DNA from: Bdellovibrionales bacterium
GTDB lineage: Bacteria; Bdellovibrionota; Bdellovibrionia; Bdellovibrionales; UBA1609
Assembly (NCBI GenBank): GCA_965199825.1
Contig: OZ241329.1
Location: 2,528,001 to 2,592,000, forward strand
Direction: 5' to 3'
DNA: 64,000 bases
Numbering within the stretch: position 1 is the stretch's first letter; every line of letters starts with the position of its first letter. Below are positions 2,555 through 40,545 of the stretch, piece after piece. Position numbers and translations under genes: made by a program. A model generated the notes under the pieces. It worked only from the letters and a program-made list of their open reading frames with translations. It had not been told where the DNA came from and made no database searches.

Positions 2555-4012
2555 CTAGTTCGATGAACAGGCCTGCTGGTCATAGAGGGCTCTGACTTGC
2601 TGGTGTGTGAGCACGACGTTAAAGATTGCGACTTCGTCTATTGTGCCTAAAAATACGGAGTTTGTATTTCCGGGCCATTCCGAAGTGCCGCCTCCAACCC
2701 GCCAGTACCCACTATAATTTTGAGCCACACCGACTGAGGTCGATTGCATCACCGGACTGCCATCAAGATAAAGAATCATACTTCCGGAGGAATAAGTGCC
2801 AACAACCTGATGCCATTTTCCATCGGAATAAGAGCCTGGGGTTGTAATCGTCGTAGTTGAACCATCATAGATTCCAAAAACAAGTTGACCACTGGACGAA
2901 AAATAAATCATGCGGTCGCGGCTGCTATTTTGAAAATTTGCTGATCCAGTTGAATCACTAAACCCGATGAGCTGGCCTCCCGAAAAAGAAGTTTTAAACC
3001 AGGCTGATAATGAAAACGCGGTGGGGTTACTGACTACAGTGGTGATCACCGCATTTGAATTAACAAGACCAAAAAACGAAACCCCATTGCCATATTTTCC
3101 GGTCGCGCCGTAAACCACCGCCTGGCCAGTTCCCGAGTTTGAGTGACCCGAAGAATCCAGAAATGGTCCCGATGATTCATCGAGATGCCAAAGACCGATC
3201 AGGTTCGCCCATTGTGGTGTGTTTGTCGAGGTCATTGCCGATCCTAAACTAAAGATGGTTGAAACATCGCTTGGTGAGAGAACCGTCGACCATATTGCGA
3301 CCTCATCTAAAATTCCGGTAAAGTAGCCATCCCCTGCACTACTGGACCAACCATTTATATTTCCGCCGCCCATTTTCCAATTTCCGTTGTAGTTTTGTGC
3401 TGCCGCTACCCCTGAGGTACGCGAAGCAACTACTGTGTTGTCGATATAAAGGATCAGACTATTGGCAGTATAGGTTCCAACAACTTGATGCCAATTGCCA
3501 TCGTTGTAAGATCCGGGGCTTGTGATCACCGCCGTTGAACCAGTGTAAATCCCAAACGAAATCTGTCCGTTGTTGAGCATGTAGATCATTCTGTCGTAGC
3601 TCGAGCCGGCCGCAAATTGGATCAGAATTCCACCGGTGATGGCAGAGGTTTTAAACCATGTTGAAATCGAAAATGTTTGGGGATCGGTAATTGTATTGGC
3701 GGTGCTGATAAAGCCGTCTGTGAGAGGTGACTGAGTAAACAGAAGTCCATTTCCAACTCTTCCTGTCGAACCTGTTGTCGCATTGGTAATGGTCGCGGCA
3801 TTGCCATTACTTGAGGTGTCGCTCAGATTTGTTGCTCCAGCCGCTTCGTTCATGGCTAAGTAACTAAACAAATTTAAATAACCTGGCGATGTGGAATTGA
3901 GATTGGTGCAGCTTCCGTATTGCGCGCTCTCGGAGCTAAAAAAATTTTCGTTAAAGCCCGCGCTGACCGACGGAAGCAAAAAGCACAAGGTACTTGTTAT
4001 TTTCCAAATCAT
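2555..4012 (-). CDS. Secreted tandem LamG/concanavalin-like lectin domain protein
   Basis: Two repeats with FSISTWFKT / DGNWHQVVGTY / LYIDN / FTGILDEVAIW. Probable start MIWKIT at 4012 overlaps the upstream stop (TGATG) and is followed by a signal peptide. Confidence 0.85.
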   Translation of the reverse strand: MIWKITSTLCFLLPSVSAGFNENFFSSESAQYGSCTNLNSTSPGYLNLFSYLAMNEAAGATNLSDTSSNGNAATITNATTGSTGRVGNGLLFTQSPLTDGFISTANTITDPQTFSISTWFKTSAITGGILIQFAAGSSYDRMIYMLNNGQISFGIYTGSTAVITSPGSYNDGNWHQVVGTYTANSLILYIDNTVVASRTSGVAAAQNYNGNWKMGGGNINGWSSSAGDGYFTGILDEVAIWSTVLSPSDVSTIFSLGSAMTSTNTPQWANLIGLWHLDESSGPFLDSSGHSNSGTGQAVVYGATGKYGNGVSFFGLVNSNAVITTVVSNPTAFSLSAWFKTSFSGGQLIGFSDSTGSANFQNSSRDRMIYFSSSGQLVFGIYDGSTTTITTPGSYSDGKWHQVVGTYSSGSMILYLDGSPVMQSTSVGVAQNYSGYWRVGGGTSEWPGNTNSVFLGTIDEVAIFNVVLTHQQVRALYDQQACSSN

Positions 4013-7000
4013 CAGTACCCCGTGGTCCAATTGATCAAGCAGTCGTAGGTTGATCCGTTGGAGATCGCAAGAATAGAGTAAACAGTCCAACTACTAGCTA
4101 CAGTTGGAGCATTGGCGGGCTTAAATCGCGAAGTGTTGCAATTGGTAAAGGTGTACGTGCGTGAGGTGCTATCCTTTACCACGATCGTGTAATTCCCGCC
4201 GTGAGCAAAATTGTTGAGAGTGATGGCACTTCCTCCCACTGATGCGAGCGTAAAGGTATTGCTGGTCGAAAGATCGAGCGTTGCGCCGGTGGCCACCGCA
4301 GTGGGTGTACTCACAATTGCGCCGGCCACTGTGAGTTTTGAAGCGGGTGATGTTGTGCCGATGCCGACGTTGCCTGAATTATCAATCCTCACACGCTCAG
4401 CGCCCATGGTATCCAGTTTTATATATCCAGCATTGTTGTTAATATCGAGGTAGGGCGCGTTTGTTTGAATTTGCGAAGCACCCGCCTGATAGATGCGCCA
4501 TTCGTTAAAGTAGGATGAACTGTAACTTCCTAAAGTGCTATAGGCTCCGCCGTTTGTTGAGGTGTTGGTCACACTCATAAGGACATTTCCGGCAACACTA
4601 TCTGACACCGATAATTTTCCGGTTGGACTTGTTGTGCCGATGCCGACGCTGCCATAAAAAATCGAATTTCCGTTTGTATTAAAATCGACAATTGGTCCGT
4701 TTATGCTTCCGGGTTTATCGGAATTAAATCGAAATCGTGTAACGCCATTCGCGTGTATGTTCGACATCCATGAAGTGGTACCAACATCCATCGACATCAC
4801 ATCGGAGGGGCCGGCAAACTGCCATTTCGTTCCCCAACTGTCATCCGTTACGAAATAGCTGCTTGTGTGCACAACGCCGTTTACGTCTAGAGGATATGCG
4901 GGAGATGTTGTTCCAATACCGACCAAACCACCCGATGGTTGCAATGTTAAATTTTGCCAAGCCAAGCCTTGATTTAAAGCTTCGATAAAGCCGAACCCAT
5001 TCGTAGTATCATACCCTAAGTTTAGGCGACTCGTTGAGCTGCTTGGTCCACGAATCACTATCTGCGACGTGGATCCGTTAACGGCATCATGCTCAACTGT
5101 TGATGCAACATCTAAAGTTTTGCTTGGAGCTGTAGTCCCAATTCCCACATTCCCGCTGCCATCAATACGCATTCGTTCTTGATAACTGGTTGCTCCCGTT
5201 TTTTGTCCGATCACAACAATGGGCGTATAACTAGATGAGCCTGCAACTGAGTATGCGGCGATGTAGGCTTGCTGGGTGTTTCCATTCGAGTTGTTGGGTG
5301 AGAATGAAATAAGGGCTTGGGTTCCGTCTGATGTGTTGGGATTCGACACATTCATTTGGACATAATCTGCCTCGGGCAAAGCCACCGAAGAACTTGAAGA
5401 ACTGTACACAGTGCCATGCCATGCTTGAGCGTTAAGTGTTCCGTTCGAAGCGATACCGCCAGATTGAATCGAAGTGGCGTTTAAAGTTCCATTTACATCT
5501 AAGTTAAAATTTGGGGTGGCTGTTCCGATCCCAACATTGCCGTTTGAAAAAAGAGTATTGCCTGTTCCCTTTGGTGCAAAACTTAAATTAATATTGGCGT
5601 CACTCCCTGCGGCCGACAGAGTTGGTGCGGTTGCCGCAAGAATTCCCCCGTTTGTTGCAGCACCTTTGATGGTGAGATAATCTACAGTGCTTGCTCCTCC
5701 ATCAATAATGGAAAGTTGGGTGCCGTTTCCAGATTTTAAATTTACCGCACCTGTTGTCGAAGAACTTAAATTTAAATTTTGAGCTGTCCCACCAGAGGAC
5801 AAAGTTACTGCACCTAAACCAGAAATGTTTGATCCTACATTTGTGATGTTGCCAGCGTTTGTGATTCCGCCTGAAGTCAAATTGAGGCCGCCACTTGATA
5901 TGGTGAGTGCTCCAGATAATGTTCCACCGCTGCTAGAAAGATAAGAATTCGATGCACCCGAAGTTAAAGTGGTCCACGAAGTTCCGTTATAATATTCAAC
6001 AACAGAATTAGTTGAGTTGAAGCGAATCATGCCGGCAGCAAGTGTAGTCGGTTGTTGCGCGGTCGTGCCCGCGGGGAGACTGACCGCATCGGTTTTGGAG
6101 CTGAGATCGAGGGACACTTGTGGAGACGAGGTTCCGATTCCAACATTGCCCAAAGGATCAATCCGCATACGCTCTAAATAAGTTGCAGCTCCCGTTTGCT
6201 GCCCAATCACTATTGTTGGAGTATAATTTGCTGCACCTGTGTTGGATACAAATCCAAGATATCCCCTTTGAGCAATACCTGCGCTGTTTTTAGCATAAGC
6301 GGAGTACGCCGCGATTGTGCCGTCGGTTGCTTGATTGTTTGCGGCGATAAAGGGATTCAAGCTCGGAACGGATCTCGAACCGTTTGGCGAATAGACTGTT
6401 CCTGTACTATCGACTCCAGTTATAACTGTGGTGCTAAATCCTGTCGAGACCGACAGAAAGCCGGCTTGAGACAGCGAAAGTCGAGATGCGCCGTTATACT
6501 GCAAATCGATCAAATTACCATTGTAACCAACGCCGGCATTTAAACCTAAAATTGTGCCATTGCTGTTTCCGGAAAATGAACCGGCTGTTCCGTTCCAACC
6601 TCCATTTCCCACTGAGAGCAAAGCGCTCGAAGCGCTCGCGATAGGTGCCCCCGCAATATTCAATAGTGACACAGGGCTTGTTGTTCCAATCCCGACGTTG
6701 CCGTTCGATAAGACAGTGAGTTGAGGCGATCCATTTGTAACTAAACTTAAATTATTTGTATCACTTGTGCCGAGGACGGCTGGTGCACCAAAGGAGTTTC
6801 CGCCGTTTTTAAAAATTCCTGCACCATTAAGAGTTGCGGCTCCGGTTCCCCCATTGGCCATCGGCAAAATTCCGGTAAGTCCTGAGGACAGACTTGGTAA
6901 ATCGGCACTGGCAAGACTTCGAAATGTGGGTGTTCCGCTAGTGCCGGTTGGACCCGCTAAAATGGTGTTGGCATTTTGCGAAGCAAAGTTTGTGGCGTCT

Positions 7001-8718
7001 ACCGAAATATTTTGGCAACTCATCACATCGCCTACCGCATTATATGTGAGAGTTTGATTTGAAGCGCAAGAGTTTGCAAATTGATTGCTCCCCGTGACCG
7101 TTGATCTCAAATCGGTCATCGCAACAAAATTGGGTGTCCAATTCGTTCCGTTAAACCGCAAAACTTGACCGTTGGTCATTGGTGCTGTGGCACTTAAGGA
7201 AATTCCATTTAATTTAACAACTGTAAAGCCGCCCGTATTGCTCATCAACACATCGCCAGAGGGTGAGATGGCGGTCGCCACATTACTTAAGTTTCCCACC
7301 CAAATTTTTGCGGCCTGGAGTGAGGAGCTCATTTTGTTATTAAAGATTGTCCAATCGCCAGCTGACAATGCTCCGTCTTGGGTGCCACTCGATAATTGAA
7401 TTGCGAGATTTGGAGCGGTTGTTGAGCCTGAATTTATCAGTGGGGAAGTTACAGCTATGGGTGATGTTACCGACGGTGTGACCCAAGATAAAATTCCCGA
7501 GGCATCGGTTGCCAAAACTTGATTGGCTGAACCCAAAGCCGAGGGCCAAGTCAAAAGATAACTGGAACTAACGGCTGTGGGAGCTTGGAATCCAATGTAA
7601 TTGGGCCCTATACCCGAATGATCGTATAAATATGTTTTATTTGATGTCACACTCCCGGTGGTTAAAATATTTCCCGAAGTCGAAATCGAGGTGCTGCCGT
7701 TGATTGCACCACTTGAAATTGCCGAACCATTTATATTGGTTAAGTTCGAAGCATCCAAAGCAGGAAGTTTTGCACCGGTTTGCACCTGTACGATTTTTCC
7801 AGCAGTGGTTCCTGTATCCACCGCGATGGATTGCCCACCGGTGGTAATGGTCCCGCCCGTAAGGCCCGCCCCTGCGGTCAAAGATGTGATTCCATTTCCG
7901 GCCGCACCTACGGTTTGCACCGAGGATCCATTATAAAATTTTAAAACATTTCCGCCGGAGTCATACCAAAATTGACCAGAGCTTAAGCCTGTTGAAGGCT
8001 GCCCCGCAATTTGTGGAACACCGGCTGCGCCATTACTTCCTGCTTGAACATAATTTGCAGGTGGAACCGCCAAAAGTGAAGTGAGTCGTGGATAGTTGGA
8101 ATTTGAAAAAACATTTTCTAGATTGGACTGCGACAAATTTGCGGGCGAATTGGTATTGACCTGCAGTAATTGCGAGGCGGTTAGACCTTGCACACTTTCG
8201 GCCCGCTCGGCAACGACAGCCATCGGAACAGAGTCCAATGTCATATAAGGACTGATCGCTCGAGTGATTCTATCGGAGGACGGGGTAAACTGAAATTTGA
8301 GATACCTTTGATCACCAGGCATCGGCACATAGTTACAACTTGATCCATTCGCAAGCGACCGCCCCGAAATATTTCCTGCGGTGTTCGAATAAATGTGAGC
8401 CATCATTAAAGCGGGATCACCCGAAGTTCTTTTAGAGGAACCCAATGGGGATCCCACTTGTTCCGAAAAATACCCGCTCGTAGTGATTGTGTTTACATTC
8501 TGACTTTCATCATAAAGGATGCAAGTTTGGGTGGGATCAAGAATTTGAATATGAATGGTCACACGGGGATCAATCACCGGAACGGTTCCTCCGGGATCAC
8601 TATAAAGCCTGCCGTCGAGGGTGAAAGATTGCGGTGTTTCACCCGCACCAAAACTGAAAACCGGAATCAATAAAAACAATACGCTAAGTAAATTGCACGT
8701 AGAAAACATTGAACACAT
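4012..8718 (-). CDS. Large Bdellovibrio-type fibre/adhesin (tail-fibre-like, MAT-like) protein
   Basis: Signal peptide, N-terminal PQSFTLDGRL domain, Gly/Ser/Thr/Asn-rich body, seven G(N/L/S)VGIGT repeats, GMIRFNST..VEYYNGTSW module. Confidence 0.8.
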   Translation of the reverse strand: MCSMFSTCNLLSVLFLLIPVFSFGAGETPQSFTLDGRLYSDPGGTVPVIDPRVTIHIQILDPTQTCILYDESQNVNTITTSGYFSEQVGSPLGSSKRTSGDPALMMAHIYSNTAGNISGRSLANGSSCNYVPMPGDQRYLKFQFTPSSDRITRAISPYMTLDSVPMAVVAERAESVQGLTASQLLQVNTNSPANLSQSNLENVFSNSNYPRLTSLLAVPPANYVQAGSNGAAGVPQIAGQPSTGLSSGQFWYDSGGNVLKFYNGSSVQTVGAAGNGITSLTAGAGLTGGTITTGGQSIAVDTGTTAGKIVQVQTGAKLPALDASNLTNINGSAISSGAINGSTSISTSGNILTTGSVTSNKTYLYDHSGIGPNYIGFQAPTAVSSSYLLTWPSALGSANQVLATDASGILSWVTPSVTSPIAVTSPLINSGSTTAPNLAIQLSSGTQDGALSAGDWTIFNNKMSSSLQAAKIWVGNLSNVATAISPSGDVLMSNTGGFTVVKLNGISLSATAPMTNGQVLRFNGTNWTPNFVAMTDLRSTVTGSNQFANSCASNQTLTYNAVGDVMSCQNISVDATNFASQNANTILAGPTGTSGTPTFRSLASADLPSLSSGLTGILPMANGGTGAATLNGAGIFKNGGNSFGAPAVLGTSDTNNLSLVTNGSPQLTVLSNGNVGIGTTSPVSLLNIAGAPIASASSALLSVGNGGWNGTAGSFSGNSNGTILGLNAGVGYNGNLIDLQYNGASRLSLSQAGFLSVSTGFSTTVITGVDSTGTVYSPNGSRSVPSLNPFIAANNQATDGTIAAYSAYAKNSAGIAQRGYLGFVSNTGAANYTPTIVIGQQTGAATYLERMRIDPLGNVGIGTSSPQVSLDLSSKTDAVSLPAGTTAQQPTTLAAGMIRFNSTNSVVEYYNGTSWTTLTSGASNSYLSSSGGTLSGALTISSGGLNLTSGGITNAGNITNVGSNISGLGAVTLSSGGTAQNLNLSSSTTGAVNLKSGNGTQLSIIDGGASTVDYLTIKGAATNGGILAATAPTLSAAGSDANINLSFAPKGTGNTLFSNGNVGIGTATPNFNLDVNGTLNATSIQSGGIASNGTLNAQAWHGTVYSSSSSSVALPEADYVQMNVSNPNTSDGTQALISFSPNNSNGNTQQAYIAAYSVAGSSSYTPIVVIGQKTGATSYQERMRIDGSGNVGIGTTAPSKTLDVASTVEHDAVNGSTSQIVIRGPSSSTSRLNLGYDTTNGFGFIEALNQGLAWQNLTLQPSGGLVGIGTTSPAYPLDVNGVVHTSSYFVTDDSWGTKWQFAGPSDVMSMDVGTTSWMSNIHANGVTRFRFNSDKPGSINGPIVDFNTNGNSIFYGSVGIGTTSPTGKLSVSDSVAGNVLMSVTNTSTNGGAYSTLGSYSSSYFNEWRIYQAGASQIQTNAPYLDINNNAGYIKLDTMGAERVRIDNSGNVGIGTTSPASKLTVAGAIVSTPTAVATGATLDLSTSNTFTLASVGGSAITLNNFAHGGNYTIVVKDSTSRTYTFTNCNTSRFKPANAPTVASSWTVYSILAISNGSTYDCLINWTTGY

Positions 8719-10497: not shown

Positions 10498-11304
10498 CTA
10501 ATGTCGATGATGGGCACGATGATGACCCGAGCACAAAATCGTCAGGTTCTCGATTTCATCTGTCCCACCTTTTGATCTGGGCTGCTGATGGTGGATATCA
10601 AGATGTCTTTGCTGCGTGCATCTTTCACCATTTTCATCGATGTGGGTACATTGACCCTCATACTTCTGATGCACTTTGCGTTTGATGGTGATTTTCGAAG
10701 AGCTTTTGGGCGGGCACGATTTTTTGAGTGGATCCAATTTCTCAAGTAATAACTGAGTTGCGTGATCGTGAACATCTTGGATGGTAGTAGCGCGTTTTAG
10801 TTTTTGGCTTAAAAGATCTTGGGCTCTTTCGATTTCTTTAAATTTTTCTTCTGTCACTGCATATGTGATTTGAATCAGAGTTGTTTCGCCCACTTGTTTG
10901 TATCGTGCCCGCTCGGGAATTGCTTTTTCAGGATGCGCTTTGGCGATTTGTTTTTCTAAATTTCTTTTTGTGCCTTTGGCGTGTTCGCACCATTCGAGAA
11001 CATTTTCTGGAGTGATGATACTTGCGATGCGGTTAATTTTAGAAACAGAAAGTTCACCCGTTTCCATTTGGGTTTTAAGTTCAGGAACTTCGGTAAATTT
11101 CTTGGCGAGTTTATTAAAGATGCTTGCCAGTTCCTCTGACATTTTGAGTTGCTTTGTTGAGTATTCAAAAAGGGATCGGCAGCCAAACTTATAATAGCTT
11201 CTGTTGCGCCACACTTGCTCTAAAGCATTCAACAATTCCATTTCGGTTTTGCGGTGGTTCTTTGCTGCGATCACTGCGGTCTCGTGAATTTTTTGATGAC
11301 TCAT
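10498..11304 (-). CDS. HNH endonuclease with helical (DUF222/ParB-HTH-like) N-terminal region, copy 1
   Basis: C-terminal QC..C..RHLDIHH..PRSKGGT..ENLTILCSGHHRAHH HNH motif; AGGAG SD; paralog of 38095-38919. Confidence 0.85.
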   Translation of the reverse strand: MSHQKIHETAVIAAKNHRKTEMELLNALEQVWRNRSYYKFGCRSLFEYSTKQLKMSEELASIFNKLAKKFTEVPELKTQMETGELSVSKINRIASIITPENVLEWCEHAKGTKRNLEKQIAKAHPEKAIPERARYKQVGETTLIQITYAVTEEKFKEIERAQDLLSQKLKRATTIQDVHDHATQLLLEKLDPLKKSCPPKSSSKITIKRKVHQKYEGQCTHIDENGERCTQQRHLDIHHQQPRSKGGTDEIENLTILCSGHHRAHHRH

Positions 11305-11510: not shown

Positions 11511-11565
11511 TTTTTTTTGAGCGGGCACGATAATTTGTGAAACCAAACTCTGGCGGGCACGACAA
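11511..11565 (-). repeat. Two copies of the TCGTGCCCGC motif upstream of HNH copy 1
   Basis: GCGGGCACGA at 11521-11530 and 11553-11562 on the plus strand; same core as the 37511 array. Confidence 0.85.
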
Positions 11566-11669: not shown

Positions 11670-11746
11670 TGGTCGGACCGACTGGATTCGAACCAGCGAC
11701 CCCAACCACCCCAAGGTTGTGCGCTACCAGGCTGCGCTACGGTCCG
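11670..11746 (-). tRNA. tRNA-Pro(GGG)
   Basis: CGGACCG acceptor stem, anticodon arm CAACC-TTGGGGT-GGTTG, GTTCGAATC T-loop, encoded CCA; usual position after ihfA-merR. Confidence 0.97.
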
Positions 11747-35850: not shown

Positions 35851-36648
35851 TTAAACGAGAGCGAGGACAATCTGCGAAATGGCCGACTGCAGTTGGGTCT
35901 GCACCGCAGAAAACTTTTGTTCCAGTCTCTCTTTGGTTTCTTCATTCATATAGAGCGATCGATTCATCTCAACCTGAATGGTGTGTTGTCCAAGATGAGG
36001 TTGGCCATAGGTTTGGGTGATGCGCCCACCTTTGTAGGGCCAATTGTAGAACACCTGAAATCCGGCATCTTCATAAGCTCGGATCACCGAATCCTTAAAT
36101 TTTTCAGAACATGATTTGCCGTCTTGATCGCTCACCACAATTTGTGGTCGAACATCGCCCTGGTCTCGATGAGCCGAAGTTCCTTTGGAGGGCATGCTGT
36201 GAGCATCTAAGTGATAGATGTCTTTATGGCCTTGCTCTTTAAATTGTTTAAAGGCCTGTTTGATTTGGTTATGAAATGGCAAAAAATAATCGGTAGTCAG
36301 TTGCTGATGTAACTCTTTTGAAATTGGTTGGTGCATCAGCACCTCACCGAGAGTGGTTTTGACCCAATGATACCCGGTGGTAAAGGAGCCGGTAGGATTT
36401 TTGGAATCTTTAACCGAATCCTGATCGACATCCTCGGGCAAACGATTGAGGTCGACCACATAACGATGAATATCCCCGCGGATCGATTTTATTTTGGCAA
36501 TCGCAGGCTCATAGAGCTTGTCGACAAAACGGTCCACATCGCGAAGAAAGGTTTGTGGTGCAACGTTTTTGAGCCAGTCGGCTTCCTTCGGGATAAATTC
36601 TCCACTATGCGGGACCGTAACAAAAAATGGCGTCATAACACTTTCCAT
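35851..36648 (-). CDS. N-formylglutamate amidohydrolase
   Basis: PHSG, RYVVDLNR, DAHSMPS, NWPYKGGRIT, IQVEMNRSLY. Confidence 0.9.
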   Translation of the reverse strand: MESVMTPFFVTVPHSGEFIPKEADWLKNVAPQTFLRDVDRFVDKLYEPAIAKIKSIRGDIHRYVVDLNRLPEDVDQDSVKDSKNPTGSFTTGYHWVKTTLGEVLMHQPISKELHQQLTTDYFLPFHNQIKQAFKQFKEQGHKDIYHLDAHSMPSKGTSAHRDQGDVRPQIVVSDQDGKSCSEKFKDSVIRAYEDAGFQVFYNWPYKGGRITQTYGQPHLGQHTIQVEMNRSLYMNEETKERLEQKFSAVQTQLQSAISQIVLALV

Positions 36649-36679
36649 TCGTAAATTTTTGCGGCTATCATCGTTGAGA

Positions 36680-37240
36680 ATGAAAATTTACACAAGAACT
36701 GGCGATAAAGGCATCACTTCTCTTGGAAGTGGCGATCGAGTTTCAAAATCTGACGCACGTTTGGAAGCCTATGGGTCACTCGATGAGCTCAATTGTTTTC
36801 TGGGCGAATTGGTTTTACGCCTTGCCGAAAAATCGGGTGTTGCCCACCTGCCACGTCTTGAATCGGAAGTGATGCGAATTCAAAATGATCTCTTCACTTT
36901 GGGAGCCCATCTTGCCTGCCCGAGTGAGGAGCAGCGTCAGAATCTGCCACGCCTTCCACTTTCGCGAGTGTCGAACCTCGAACATGAAATTGATTGGATG
37001 TCGGCTCAGCTGCCGCCGTTAAAGGAATTTATTCTTCCTTCGGGCACTAGCATTTGTGTGCAGTATCATATCTGCCGCACCGTCACGCGCCGAGCAGAAC
37101 GGCGATGCGTTGCTTTGGGAAATACGGTTGAAGCCTCAATTGTTGAATATCTCAATCGACTTTCTGATTATCTTTTTGTTTGCGCGCGGCTGAGTTCGCA
37201 TTTGGAAGGGGTCCAAGAACTCCCCTGGAAAAAACCATGA
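36680..37240 (+). CDS. PduO-type cob(I)alamin adenosyltransferase
   Basis: MKIYTRTGDKG (true start 36680), YGSLDELN, RTVTRRAER, YLNRLSDYLF. Confidence 0.93.
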   Translation: MKIYTRTGDKGITSLGSGDRVSKSDARLEAYGSLDELNCFLGELVLRLAEKSGVAHLPRLESEVMRIQNDLFTLGAHLACPSEEQRQNLPRLPLSRVSNLEHEIDWMSAQLPPLKEFILPSGTSICVQYHICRTVTRRAERRCVALGNTVEASIVEYLNRLSDYLFVCARLSSHLEGVQELPWKKP

Positions 37241-37510
37241 ACTGAATTTTCTGTTAAGGTCTTGAGCCCTCAGGACAATTTTGAGGCCTCTCCCATAAAT
37301 TGAACAGTTTTAGTTACGTTAAAGATTTTGGTCGGTTTGTAAGAACCACTCAGAGGTAACATTTTTTTGTCGCCTATTATCTGTGCAAAGGTTGTGACTA
37401 TGTCCTATCCGAATTGAATTCTAAAAGGTTAAATTTTTCTATTGAGTCAGCTGGAAAACCCATTTGCTATCGAAGGTTGCTGCAACTGAATGCGAACGAA
37501 GGTACGATCG

Positions 37511-37773
37511 TCGTGCCCGCTTGAGTTGTCGTGCCCGCTTGAGTTGTCGTGCCCGCTTGAGTTGTCGTGCCCGCTTGAGTTGTCGTGCCCGCTTGAGTTG
37601 TCGTGCCCGCTTGAGTTGTCGTGCCCGCTTGAGTTGTCGTGCCCGCTTGAGTTGTCGTGCCCGCTTGAGTTGTCGTGCCCGCTTGAGTTGTCGTGCCCGC
37701 TTGAGTTGTCGTGCCCGCTTGAGTTGTCGTGCCCGCTTGAGTTGTCGTGCCCGCTTGAGTTGTTGTGCCCGCT
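37511..37773 (+). repeat. Perfect tandem array of TCGTGCCCGCTTGAGTTG (18 bp x 14, plus a partial 15th unit)
   Basis: Units start every 18 nt from 37511 to 37745; the last partial unit is TTGTGCCCGCT; no spacers. Confidence 0.97.
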
Positions 37774-37812
37774 AATTTTATATTTAACTAAAAACTGACA
37801 CCGCCGGAAATT

Positions 37813-37874
37813 TTGTCGTGCCTATTTGAAGTTGTCGTGCCCACTCAAGGGTTGTCGTGCCCACTCAAAAAAAT
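37813..37874 (+). repeat. Three degenerate copies of the array motif
   Basis: TTGTCGTGCCTAT, GTTGTCGTGCCCACTCAAG, GTTGTCGTGCCCACTCAAAAAAAT at 19-20 nt spacing. Confidence 0.9.
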
Positions 37875-38039
37875 GAGACATATATTATTGTTGTTGACAC
37901 GATTTTTGTTCAGTTCTTTTGGCTTCAGTTGTATTTTTAAGAGAGTTTTGAAACTTTTTGTTTCGATGACTTCTCCAATTGCTGTTACGGCGAAAATTTC
38001 CATCCAAATTAACCTGCCTCAATGTGGTGTCGCCGCTAG

Positions 38040-38094
38040 CAAAATGCATTCTAGAAAACCCATGTTAAACTTTTCTCCTAAACAGGAGATATTT
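38040..38094 (+). promoter_or_regulatory. Conserved promoter/RBS block of HNH copy 2 (extended -10 TGTTAAACT, AGGAG)
   Basis: Homologous to 11305-11360 (minus strand). Confidence 0.6.
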
Positions 38095-38919
38095 ATGGAT
38101 CATTTAAAAATTCATTCACACGCAGTCAGGGCGGCTGATGCCCACAGAAAATCTGAAATGGATTTGCTTAACGCTCTTGAGGTTGTTTGGAGAAATAAAA
38201 CCTATTATCAGTTTGGCTGCCGCTCTTTGTTTGAATACTCCACCAAACAACTTAAACTTTCTGAAGAGATGGCGAGCATCGTAAATAAAATAGCTAAGAA
38301 ATTTACCGAGCTGCCTGAACTGAAATTGGAAATGCAAACGGGAGAGCTTTCTCTTTCAAAAGTAAACCGGATCACTGGAGTCGTGAATAAAGACAACGTT
38401 CAACATTGGGTAGATCTTGCCAAAGGGACCAAACGTAATTTCGAAAAAGAAATCGCAAAGGTCCAGCCCGAAAAAGCAATTCCTGAGCGGGCACGATATC
38501 AAAAAGCTGATGAGACTCTGAGAGTTTCGATTTCTTTTTCAATTACACAAGAAGAGTATGCCGTTTTTGAACGAACCAGAGATCTATTAAGTCAAAAATT
38601 AAAACGTCCCGCGAGCATTGGCGAAACACATGTTGCGGCTATTCATGAGCTCAATCAAAAATTGGATCCACTTAAAAAGCCTATTCGCAAAGACACAGCG
38701 GGCACGACAAAATTGACTGTTAATTTAAAGCGAAAAGTTCATTACACTTTTGATAGTCAGTGCACGCATGTGGATCATAACGGCGAGCGATGCACGCAAC
38801 GTCGCCATCTTGATATTCATCACATCGTTCCAAAAGCAAGTGGTGGGACTGATAATGAAGCCAATCTGACTTTATTGTGCGCGGGACATCATCGTGCCCA
38901 TCACAGAATGAAGTCTTAA
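38095..38919 (+). CDS. HNH endonuclease with helical N-terminal region, copy 2
   Basis: Start MDHLKIH after AGGAG aligns with copy 1 MSHQKIH; RHLDIHHIVPKASGGT..NLTLLCAGHHRAHH. Confidence 0.85.
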   Translation: MDHLKIHSHAVRAADAHRKSEMDLLNALEVVWRNKTYYQFGCRSLFEYSTKQLKLSEEMASIVNKIAKKFTELPELKLEMQTGELSLSKVNRITGVVNKDNVQHWVDLAKGTKRNFEKEIAKVQPEKAIPERARYQKADETLRVSISFSITQEEYAVFERTRDLLSQKLKRPASIGETHVAAIHELNQKLDPLKKPIRKDTAGTTKLTVNLKRKVHYTFDSQCTHVDHNGERCTQRRHLDIHHIVPKASGGTDNEANLTLLCAGHHRAHHRMKS

Positions 38920-39009
38920 GATTTGCACCCATTAAGTCATTCACCGTCTGCCTCCATATTAAATTTTAGTTCATCGCTATAATCACTCATCGAGTTGAAG
39001 CTGAATCGC

Positions 39010-40545
39010 CTATTGGATGCTTTCTTTTTTTGTGGTTCTTCCAACCTCACTTAAACCGGCTCCTTCATAGTCCCTCAAACACTCTTTACTCTTGGACTCG
39101 CAACAGAACTTGGCATCGGGAATAAATAATTTTAGTTTGCGATACTCTTCAACAATGAGGTTCGAGATACCAAGATTGCTGGTGACATCCTCAGAGCGAC
39201 CGGCAAATTTAAAGTTGCGAACTTCTAAACCATTTTCGGTTGTTAAAATTTTGGTGATATTTTTTTGATCATTCATCTCGACTTTATATTGAAGGCGTCT
39301 TTGGGTTTTTGGATCGACCGTATTGAGTAAAAACTGGTGATCATTGGTGCAGGTCAATTGTTCAAATTGAGGTTGCGAAAAAAAATGATCATAAAGATCT
39401 TTGTAGTATTGGCAAATCTCCTTATTTTTTAAAACCTCCACTTGTTCTTGTTCGGTCAAAACCAAAAATTCATCTATTTGCTGGTTGATTTCAAATTTTG
39501 GAGCACAGTGATTGTTGGGATCAAGATTGACGTAAGATTGCGACTCACAGCCAATGCCATTCGTCCCGAGCAAGGTAGAGGCAAAACGTATACTGAGCCC
39601 AACCACACCTCCCAGTAACAGTAACGATTTGCTTCCGCCTGTTTTTGCAAGTGCGATTGCCGACGAATAGGCGTGGCTCAAAATTTGATTTTCGATTTGG
39701 TCGAGAATGACACTTCCTGTTTTGAACAGAATTTTTACTTTTTGCTCTTCGATCAACGCAATTTTTTTAAGGGCTGCACGTTGCTCTAAAGTGGACCATC
39801 GATTGGTTAAGCCAGAATTAATTTCATCCAAAAAAGGTTCATCAAGTGGAAGGCCTTGAATAATTCGTTGCCGAATCTTTCTCGCATTGGAGCTTACAGA
39901 AAAACGACTGGCTTCTTGTATTGCTTGAGGAAGATTGTCGAAATCGGTGTTGGCGATGTCATACGTGCGCCCCATTAGAGGTAAGAAATAGGGCTCGTAA
40001 AGTGGTTGATCAGGATCGGCGTTATCTCTTCTTTGTCGAATGACTGATCGAGAGCGGAGCAAGTTTTTGCGCTCAGAATCAACATCTTGTTCATGAGGAT
40101 CAAGGTCAGCAATGTCTTGCAAGTAATCACTGTGGCGAGCCGCCATGATATCGGCTCGAGATCCTCGCGATTGGATCGATATACTTAAAGCCCGCATATT
40201 TGTTTGTTGTTGTGAGAGGTGTTCAATCTCGTGATCAATTTCTAACAGTCTTAAAGATGGATTTTCGATAAGTCGAGACTTGCGCCATTCGTCGTGAAGG
40301 AGACTTGCCATCTTGTGGCTTAACAAATCGCGGGCCTCGCTCATCAGCTGGTCATACTGGGATGTCAGTGCTGGGGCCGTGCTGCGGCCAGAAACCTGCG
40401 CACCCAATCCACCGCAAGCTTCGAGCGATGTCGAAGCTTGGCAGGACACAAAACTTTTTATTTGGTTAAGACCTTTGATGTTTTGGCAAAATGAACCCGG
40501 GGCTGCAAACGAAGCTAAATGAGTTAAGTAGAATAAGATAAACAT
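39010..40545 (-). CDS. Secreted hypothetical protein (Cys pairs, coiled coil, RyR-repeat-like motifs)
   Basis: Signal peptide; LHDEWRKSR and DIANTDFDNLP segments. Confidence 0.6.
   Translation of the reverse strand: MFILFYLTHLASFAAPGSFCQNIKGLNQIKSFVSCQASTSLEACGGLGAQVSGRSTAPALTSQYDQLMSEARDLLSHKMASLLHDEWRKSRLIENPSLRLLEIDHEIEHLSQQQTNMRALSISIQSRGSRADIMAARHSDYLQDIADLDPHEQDVDSERKNLLRSRSVIRQRRDNADPDQPLYEPYFLPLMGRTYDIANTDFDNLPQAIQEASRFSVSSNARKIRQRIIQGLPLDEPFLDEINSGLTNRWSTLEQRAALKKIALIEEQKVKILFKTGSVILDQIENQILSHAYSSAIALAKTGGSKSLLLLGGVVGLSIRFASTLLGTNGIGCESQSYVNLDPNNHCAPKFEINQQIDEFLVLTEQEQVEVLKNKEICQYYKDLYDHFFSQPQFEQLTCTNDHQFLLNTVDPKTQRRLQYKVEMNDQKNITKILTTENGLEVRNFKFAGRSEDVTSNLGISNLIVEEYRKLKLFIPDAKFCCESKSKECLRDYEGAGLSEVGRTTKKESIQ

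Follow-up and report, generated by a model that had tools for sequence, protein, structure and literature searches.

A short DNA word of upstream arrays recurs within the coding sequence of a multi-copy HNH nuclease gene in a Bdellovibrionales bacterium

The HNH genes and the motif copies in and around them

The stretch of DNA analyzed here (the window; 64,000 nucleotides (nt), positions 2,528,001 to 2,592,000 of contig OZ241329.1, Bdellovibrionales bacterium, assembly GCA_965199825.1) carries two paralogous HNH nuclease genes, copies 1 and 2, each preceded by repeated units of a short motif, TCGTGCCCGC. A previous reading made from the letters alone (the sequence-only reading) had proposed that this motif is also written into both genes and that selection there acts on the DNA or RNA motif rather than on the peptide. 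By comparing the gene copies, we confirm that the array word is also written into this many-copy nuclease gene and is kept there against silent mutation. Throughout, position numbers are those of the window, G000 denotes the genome that holds it, and offsets marked plus or minus are counted from the ATG. The features of the two loci are as follows.

37510-37773, plus strand: tandem array with an 18-nt period, 14.7 copies of GTCGTGCCCGCTTGAGTT, 99% matches
37813-37864, plus strand: three looser motif units nearest copy 2, cores at 37817, 37835 and 37855; the last, at -240, is the left limit of the repeated unit
37865-38094, plus strand: leader of copy 2, about 230 nt, with a TTGACA box, a -10-like box and a ribosome-binding site (RBS)
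38095-38919, plus strand: HNH gene copy 2, 274 amino acids (aa); helical N-domain, beta hairpin plus two helices, disordered linker, HNH domain
38485-38496, minus strand: intragenic site 1 of copy 2 (ERAR), GAG CGG GCA CGA, motif reversed, at +394
38697-38710, minus strand: intragenic site 2 of copy 2 (linker, AGTT), motif reversed, at +605, in residues 197-205, where the predicted local distance difference test score (pLDDT) is below 50
38890-38903, plus strand: intragenic site 3 of copy 2 (HRAHH), CATCGTGCCCATCA, forward, at +797; right limit of the unit
10498-11304, minus strand: HNH gene copy 1, 268 aa, 62% identical to copy 2
10901-10914, plus strand: ERAR site of copy 1, reversed relative to the gene; motif at 10903-10912
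10710-10719, minus strand: linker site of copy 1 (KSCPP, AAA TCG TGC CCG CC), forward relative to the gene
10512-10519, minus strand: 3' site of copy 1 (HRAHH), forward relative to the gene
11521-11562, minus strand: pair of motif units ahead of copy 1, at 11521-11530 and 11553-11562, of which the proximal, at -226, is the left limit of the unit

The matches listed by the sequence-only reading were recovered at their positions. In copy 2, TGAGCGGGCACGATA at 38484-38498 is the same string as at 11518-11532, AGCGGGCACGACAA at 38697-38710 is the reverse complement of TTGTCGTGCCCGCT within the 18-nt unit of the array (37510-37773), and TCGTGCCCA begins at 38892; copy 1 has its matches at 10903-10912, 10710-10719 and 10512-10519. 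The codons GAG CGG GCA CGA are, as described, identical in both paralogs and stand between differing neighbors (CCT/CCC and TAT/TAC).

The sites fall into four classes that represent four combinations of orientation and frame, namely ERAR (reverse, core from codon position 3), the AGTT linker (reverse, position 1), the KSCPP linker (forward, position 1) and HRAH (forward, position 3). The linker word is found in opposite orientations according to subfamily, giving KSCPP from AAA TCG TGC CCG CC in one and AGTT from GCG GGC ACG ACA in the other; the same DNA word is kept while both peptide and orientation change. A degenerate forward copy (TCGTGCC) and a reverse copy (GGCACGA) stand 12 nt apart in the linker of g1203249. 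In the AlphaFold model of the HNH protein (mean pLDDT 85), residues 197-205, which hold the linker site, form the sole long stretch below 50.

Chance can be ruled out as the source of the motif copies, because the window contains 21 exact copies of the 10-mer TCGTGCCCGC where 0.10 are expected (none of 100 shuffles reached 21) and the whole genome 300, compared with three of the reversed control word, and because the 27 HNH genes of G000 contain 71 core 8-mers against about 0.7 expected. The 300 exact 10-mers lie upstream of HNH genes (119), inside them (38), just downstream (1) or elsewhere (142), and 118 of the 142 fall in seven arrays without an HNH gene. Single copies are also found inside other genes, both in the window (6063-6072, within a 1568-aa open reading frame at 4012-8718) and at G000:C1:211108-230732; seven share the context ACTTGTCC(G/A)TTCGTGCCCGC(A/G/T)GGCAATC, which seems to be a coding module repeated among paralogous genes.

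Silent-site variation at the motif codons

The codon alignment comprised the 24 paralogs of at least 260 aa, with g799110 (truncated), g841266 (internal deletion) and g1248723 (in-frame stop) left out. The reduced synonymous substitution that the sequence-only reading anticipated at the motif sites was borne out, as among 106 four- or six-fold degenerate columns the seven lowest in synonymous diversity are all motif codons. Mean heterozygosity was 0.18 at motif codons and 0.62 at the others, with a one-sided Mann-Whitney p of 1.2e-6 that is generous, the paralogs being non-independent. Relatedness does not make the contrast between columns, because every column has the same tree.

At the ERAR site, the aligned paralogs use GAG in 21/23, CGG in 18/20, GCA in 18/19 and CGA in 21/23 cases, and the adjoining Pro, Ile, Ala and Tyr codons vary freely. 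The HRAH codons are CAT in 24/24, CGT in 24/24 and GCC in 23/24 paralogs, and those of the forward linker are TCG in 13/13 and TGC in 13/13, whereas other Arg and Ala columns of the 24 paralogs range in heterozygosity from 0.36 to 0.78. Ordinary variation is seen at the homologous codons of the G036 lineage, which is 35-37% identical, comprises nine copies and lacks the motif: Glu is encoded by GAA in four and GAG in five, Arg by CGA in six and by CGC, CGT and CGG in one each, and the Arg of HHR by CGA in one, CGG in three and AGA in five.

One could argue that peptide selection and codon preference together produce this pattern, the codons being merely the preferred ones for conserved residues, and ERAR and HHRAHH are indeed conserved peptides. 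Elsewhere in the HNH genes, however, CGG makes up only 8% of Arg codons (the second-rarest) and GAG is a minor codon at 27% of Glu; moreover, all other conserved Arg, Ala and Ser columns vary and the linker peptide differs between subfamilies, and we consider this explanation almost negligible. Taken together, the invariant silent sites and the retention of the linker word across differing peptides support the proposal that the constraint falls on a nucleic-acid motif rather than on the peptide.

The repeated unit, its protein and its relatives

The genome of G000 (2.84 Mb, 44% G+C) contains 29 matches to the HNH protein. Our analysis covered the 27 copies with a recognizable start, a 70-residue fragment at C1:1029905-1030114 being set aside, and both window genes belong to this set of an approximately 1.04-kb unit. 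On a gene-centered map of the 27 copies, the upstream motif copies are forward, the last lying at about -220 to -350; the ERAR site (reverse, +394) is present in 19/27 copies, the linker site in 25/27 (forward at +585 in 14, reverse at +605 in 11) and the HRAHH site (forward, +785 to +797) in 25/27. Within the unit, TCGTGCCC(G/A)C is therefore met in the left-end arrays, at the right end in the last codons and in the inter-domain linker, and in the G000 lineage additionally in the ERAR codons.

Homology between copies extends from the last upstream motif to about 5 nt past the core at the HRAHH codons. In the 96%-identical pair g37218/g639324, likeness is confined to -231 to +805, g876415 and g904299 are alike from -221 to +809, and more distant pairs stop at +809 to +816. 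At the right junction, the sequence is CA TCGTGCCC A Y C A Y, followed by divergence; the junction lies within the coding sequence, which accounts for the variable C-terminal tails. Between g876415 and g904299, no mismatch is found from +288 to +808 and divergence is total from +809, while the first 290 nt differ by about 7%, so that the 521-nt identical tract looks like a recent conversion tract ending at the right-end motif. In the truncated copy g799110, homology to the closest relative stops precisely at the end of the linker TCGTGCCC. Array lengths and periods vary even among near-identical copies, and a target-site duplication is indistinguishable because the motif itself stands at both ends of the unit. 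About 110 nt separate the distal motif unit of copy 1 from a tRNA-Pro(GGG) gene farther upstream (window 11670-11746).

The seven orphan arrays of G000, with periods of 16-20 nt and up to 37 units, stand ahead of mutually unrelated genes (mraY-like and selD-like among others):

G000:C1:246215-246812, orphan array
G000:C1:484398, orphan array
G000:C1:808753-810312, orphan array
G000:C1:953713-953893, orphan array
G000:C1:1355529-1355989, orphan array
G000:C1:1575809-1576469, orphan array
G000:C1:1618395-1618819, orphan array

Searches with blastn revealed no remnants of the HNH unit beside any of the seven, which may represent landing pads still unoccupied or places from which the unit has been lost. 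The array head ACCGCCGGARATTTTGTCGTGCC recurs, with seven occurrences at up to two mismatches (control 0), among them window 37800-37822 and G000:C1:246442, 246742 and 841502, and one orphan array has a 148-nt spacer repeated between its blocks. A gene for a 179-aa IS200-like HUH protein with an HFHLL motif (G000:C1:247000-247536) lies 178 nt behind an orphan array. This family was rejected as partner of the motif, as only one copy stands beside an array among 17 tblastn matches (14 at 52% identity or more).

In the leader of copy 2, a TTGACA box (37894-37899) and a TG-extended -10-like box, TGTTAAACT (38063-38071), are separated by 166 nt. Across all G000 copies, the roughly 230 nt from the last motif to the ATG are poorly conserved except for these two boxes; the TTGAC box lies a median 28 nt past the last motif, the TG-extended -10-like box lies ahead of the RBS, and the spacing is 165-168 nt in 20 of the 23 copies in which a regular expression found both. 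The pair looks like a promoter split by about 150 nt, whereas consensus scans for promoters and terminators gave counts no higher than expected from shuffles. No conserved RNA structure was detected in 25 leaders (alifold consensus 0.0 kcal/mol); the eleven leaders of subfamily B share only a 4-pair hairpin at the RBS, with single-sequence z-scores of -2.4 to +1.0, and an Rfam scan of 36500-39500 at E up to 1 returned no match.

Two known repeat systems were rejected for this locus. A CRISPR array is ruled out by the 18-nt period without spacers and the lack of an Rfam match, and an IscB/OMEGA (HEARO) system by the match to NF040563, which is confined to the HNH part and scores 32 bits (cut-off 175), as well as by the absence of conserved leader structure and of an Rfam match.

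The encoded protein matches PF01844 (HNH) with 30.2 and 27.5 bits (Pfam gathering cut-off 21.4), a match shared by 27/27 family members, and the best solved relatives are McrA, the HNH domain of IscB and the En domain of group II introns. Pfam detected HNH families only in the 27 members, PF02720 (DUF222) being found in 0/27 at E up to 1. A profile comparison (hhalign) of A1 with P0024 gave a probability of 99.75% and an E of 3.2e-27 over 277 columns; P0024 carries PF02720 at residues 43-173 (25.7 bits, cut-off 24.4) plus HNH, and this full-length match makes the protein of the unit a distant DUF222-HNH relative. No transposase of a known class (DDE, HUH, serine or tyrosine recombinase) was recognized among the 27 members beyond rve_3 in 1/27 at E 0.1, and G000 shows no terminal inverted repeats, the motif copies at both limits pointing the same way.

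In the predicted fold, residues 16-125 recurrently match the DNA-binding domains of KorB, Spo0J and ParB at middling scores (Z 5.9-6.6, 93-99 residues), the root-mean-square deviation (rmsd) being 3.2-3.5 over 93-96 residues for 8qa8 (Z 6.4, rmsd 3.5, 96 residues), 1r71 (Z 5.9) and 1vz0 (Z 5.9). Foldseek found nothing in the PDB at E up to 0.001, its probabilities of 0.6-0.75 coming with E above 0.1. Residues 126-196 are predicted to form a homodimer, with a score of 0.63 against 0.00 for the best of three controls, the mark for this score being reached by 20/30 solved pairs and 1/23 single chains. Contacts agree between runs to at least 88%, partner pLDDT is at least 71 and the interface comprises residues 141-152 and 154-190. 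Strand 141-152 would pair antiparallel with its twin in a ribbon-helix-helix-like manner, a pass that may reflect likeness to solved ribbon-helix-helix dimers, and fold matches to ribbon-helix-helix proteins reach only Z 4.2-4.6. The strand just ahead of this dimer strand begins with the residues encoded at ERAR.

Relatives of the gene are widespread, with 66/121 genomes of the order matching at E up to 1e-25, many of them ten times or more, and the family profile retrieves 5,084 cluster representatives at E up to 1e-30 among 1.84 billion. TCGTGCC itself was found around the gene in none of the related loci examined. We compared, locus by locus, the 770 nt ahead of the gene with windows at fixed places in it, recording the longest exact match in either orientation and scoring matches of at least 14 nt; the linker window was the 200 nt before the HNH domain, and three control windows were included per locus. 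In an exploratory sample of 40 distinct loci (42 rows, two duplicates), the linker scored in nine, the stop-codon window in four and each control in none. In a fresh sample of 36 evaluable loci (40 fetched, four dropped by preset filters), the linker scored in six, the stop-codon window in three and each control again in none, which for the linker is 6/36 against 0/108 pooled controls (Fisher p=1.7e-4). The stop-codon window thus matched the flank in 7/76 loci of the two samples together, and a uniform re-run gave 16/77 loci for the linker and 0/77 for the control windows.

At least ten different motif sequences were encountered among these lineages, with perfect palindromes in 5/16; L057, for instance, has a 23-nt palindrome, L052 has ACCTGTCGCGCGACAGG, three copies of G035 have GACCCGCGCCAGCGC and L122 has ACTTCCACAGCGGAGTTCTGAAA. 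In G035, copies of the word again lie upstream at the left limit of the unit, and the linker of one of its loci (L060) holds several motif copies in tandem, read as RPAPARKEPAPADAARPAPAR. In G015b, inverted repeats of about 55 nt surround 2/6 copies, L061 and L063 (about -300 to -245 and +820 to +880), and their inner part, ATTTCCAAGCGCCTA, is also present in the linker, read as QISKRL. The linkers of G034 (L068-L072) are about 150 aa long and contain repeated peptide modules (NQLFTRTVKLRL ...), a pattern that suggests DNA repeats expanding inside the reading frame. In G036, 6/9 copies (L036, L047, L048, L049, L051, L053) carry a REP-like inverted repeat, AACTTTTCAAAA ... TTTTGAAAAGT, with a G+C-rich center, in the 3' flank about 20-90 nt past the stop codon.

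Scans of genome and metagenome contigs for close relatives returned HNH-domain matches only; no relative was found on plasmids, and phages gave a single 36-residue match. A word-based protein search retrieved three short foreign contigs, P0003 (88% identical), P0013 (60%) and P0020 (40%). The P0020 contig is 1,035 nt long, the length of one unit, which is expected if assemblies break at the repeated ends of the unit.

Candidate roles of the motif sites

Alongside the DNA-level constraint, the motif copies at the limits of the 27-copy unit and the covariation of flank and linker words across lineages, which the comparisons above establish, we lean, by a narrow balance of probability, toward a reading in which the motifs are the element's own putative protein-recognition sites, acting in cis for copying or gene conversion and probably also for self-control. 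Binding of the motif would fall to the KorB/ParB-like N-domain and the predicted ribbon-helix-helix-like dimer, which would set the HNH domain beside it. Cuts or nicks at motif sites would then start copying of the unit or gene conversion between its copies, and occupied sites next to the promoter and within the gene would also restrict production of the nuclease. The right-hand and internal sites would have to be dual-coded, because almost no non-coding DNA exists on that side of the unit, and they may have been placed where the peptide is least constrained or already suitable. Among the three options offered by the sequence-only reading, self-binding sites fit best; DNA looping between the array and the intragenic sites is possible, the leader boxes being held at a fixed spacing, and pairing of an array transcript with the mRNA gained no support from leaders that lack conserved structure.

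Several observations weigh against recognition by the element's own protein as a means of copying, beyond the non-independence of the paralogs noted for the silent-site test. The ERAR site is absent from 8/27 copies and is dispensable for copying, because the pair g535332/g576436 (88% identical) was duplicated without it. In other genomes, the ERAR-equivalent window gave a match of at least 14 nt in 0/77 loci, which, set against 16/77 for the linker, makes the linker site family-wide and limits the ERAR site to the G000 lineage; even the linker shows a long exact match in only about a fifth of other-lineage loci. A max-chi-square scan of the 24 paralogs placed the best breakpoints at +75 to +789, most of them at +557 to +790, and off the motifs, a result that rate differences between domains can mimic. 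Seven motif arrays of the genome lack any HNH gene, and the N-domain fold matches are middling, with Z below 8. Finally, neither insertion polymorphism nor an excision junction was seen in two public runs (shares 0.98 and 0.95), whose contigs break at repeats; the joints listed from these runs have 30-nt sides at 85% likeness and represent cross-mapping between paralogs. No public RNA run was listed as containing the stretch, and three RNA runs with the same label gave 0 reads, a count that carries no weight for or against transcription.

The motifs might instead be operators only, with protein bound to array and intragenic sites keeping a toxic nuclease low, either through looping or by blocking transcription ahead of the nuclease domain, and without any role in mobility. 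In plasmid partition systems and among omega-type repressors, a small dimeric repressor binds promoter-side arrays of short direct repeats, and the predicted dimer, the short distance from the last motif to the conserved TTGAC box and the constant spacing of the two boxes within an otherwise poorly conserved leader are all in keeping with such a role. Pure self-regulation nevertheless leaves unexplained why homology starts and stops at motif copies, why one copy is truncated exactly at the linker motif, and how seven arrays before unrelated genes and a 27-fold spread arose, and we regard it as unlikely, though it deserves some weight. It is more doubtful still that the intragenic copies are unneeded by-products, seeded or refreshed by array-building (slippage or array-templated repair) wherever the peptide tolerates them. 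The disordered linker, the tandem motif copies in the linker of L060, the long repetitive linkers of G034 and the fluctuation of arrays between near-identical copies would fit such a process, but ERAR belongs to a strand and HRAH to the catalytic motif, 19 and 25 of the 27 copies hold these sites at fixed positions despite divergence to 50-60% protein identity, and the refreshing tract would need to be only about 12 nt long because the flanking codons vary freely.

A function at the RNA level, in which an array transcript pairs with the reverse-oriented sites of the mRNA, or forward and reverse sites pair within it, draws on the complementarity of forward and reverse copies on one strand and on the closely spaced pair in the linker of g1203249. 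We give it very little credence, since the linker word is retained although its orientation flips between subfamilies, array units often read CCCAC while gene sites stay GCGGG without compensating change, and neither the leader consensus nor Rfam points to a structure. Equally remote appears a role as docking site, the motif being the attachment core of an integrase encoded elsewhere: direct core repeats at both unit limits are what site-specific integration would leave, and the phiRv1 serine integrase uses REP13E12 (DUF222-HNH) genes as its attB, but the unit encodes no recombinase (no search for integrases elsewhere in the genome was made), and the motif covaries with the HNH gene lineage across genomes.

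Comparison with known systems places the unit near several of them. Some insertion sequences have end sequences or transposase-binding sites that overlap the 3' end of the transposase gene, and some transposons carry sub-terminal binding-site repeats in both orientations; the G000 unit resembles these in that putative sites for its own protein are dual-coded with the reading frame, multiple, near the ends and in both orientations, and differs in having no known transposase fold, ends in direct orientation and a target-site duplication that is not separable from the motif. With ParB-parS and KorB-operator systems it shares short specific sites in clusters and an N-domain that resembles, as a middling match, their DNA-binding domains, but a nuclease domain is attached and neither a ParA partner nor a CTPase domain was seen. 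In Bacillus subtilis, a parS site lies inside spo0J, a binding site within its own gene, a case that our literature search did not return. Like free-standing HNH homing endonuclease genes, the unit encodes an HNH nuclease and shows a conversion-like tract (521 nt); unlike these genes, which disrupt or lack their own target, it keeps several copies of the presumed target inside, and no empty target allele was seen.

REP13E12/DUF222-HNH elements of mycobacteria have the same domain order, whole-length homology and a multi-copy nature, whereas the proteins of the G000 unit are shorter (268-285 aa) and lack a direct PF02720 match. One report counts REP13E12/HNH/DUF222 among repeated mycobacterial elements (PMC10589994), and our literature search, with supplements outside its scope, found no description of motif arrays or of motif copies in the coding sequence for REP13E12/DUF222-HNH and no mechanism for the DUF222-HNH family. 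The nearest described logic is that of REPtrons (TnpA-REP/RAYT), in which a single gene likewise travels with many copies of a short sequence and, according to PMC8266576, TnpA-REP recognizes REP and protein and repeat co-evolve. The difference lies in the enzyme, an HNH nuclease here as opposed to an HUH Y1 tyrosine transposase acting on single-stranded hairpins there, and in the motif, which unlike REP is non-palindromic, stands in head-to-tail arrays and is also found inside the gene. A paper on two Peredibacter starrii strains gives 10 and 13 HNH endonuclease genes, only six at shared sites (PMC13147790); these are possible members of the same family.

Extending recognition by the element's own protein to the whole family, we put forward, as a conjecture we hold at rather less than even chance, that DUF222-HNH genes represent an undescribed class of mobile element. 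In it, one sequence-specific HNH nuclease would recognize a lineage-specific site at both ends of the unit and in its own linker, copy itself by break-induced repair and amplify the site into landing-pad arrays, with protein and site specificity co-evolving such that, in each lineage, a programmable-looking binding module and its target would form a natural pair.

Overall, these results bear on a very common group of genes, the DUF222-HNH genes, which include the REP13E12 repeats of mycobacteria. They provide a testable handle in the form of a defined 10-14-nt word per lineage at exact positions, where the protein is predicted to bind and cut. The silent sites of the motif are likely maintained because the encoded nuclease recognizes the word to copy or control its gene. 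The gene also represents a clear natural instance of dual coding, in which a cis-acting DNA site overrides codon choice in a structured protein and forces the linker peptide. The covarying protein-site pairs, should they be upheld, would offer a series of natural specificities for studying how small nucleases are retargeted.

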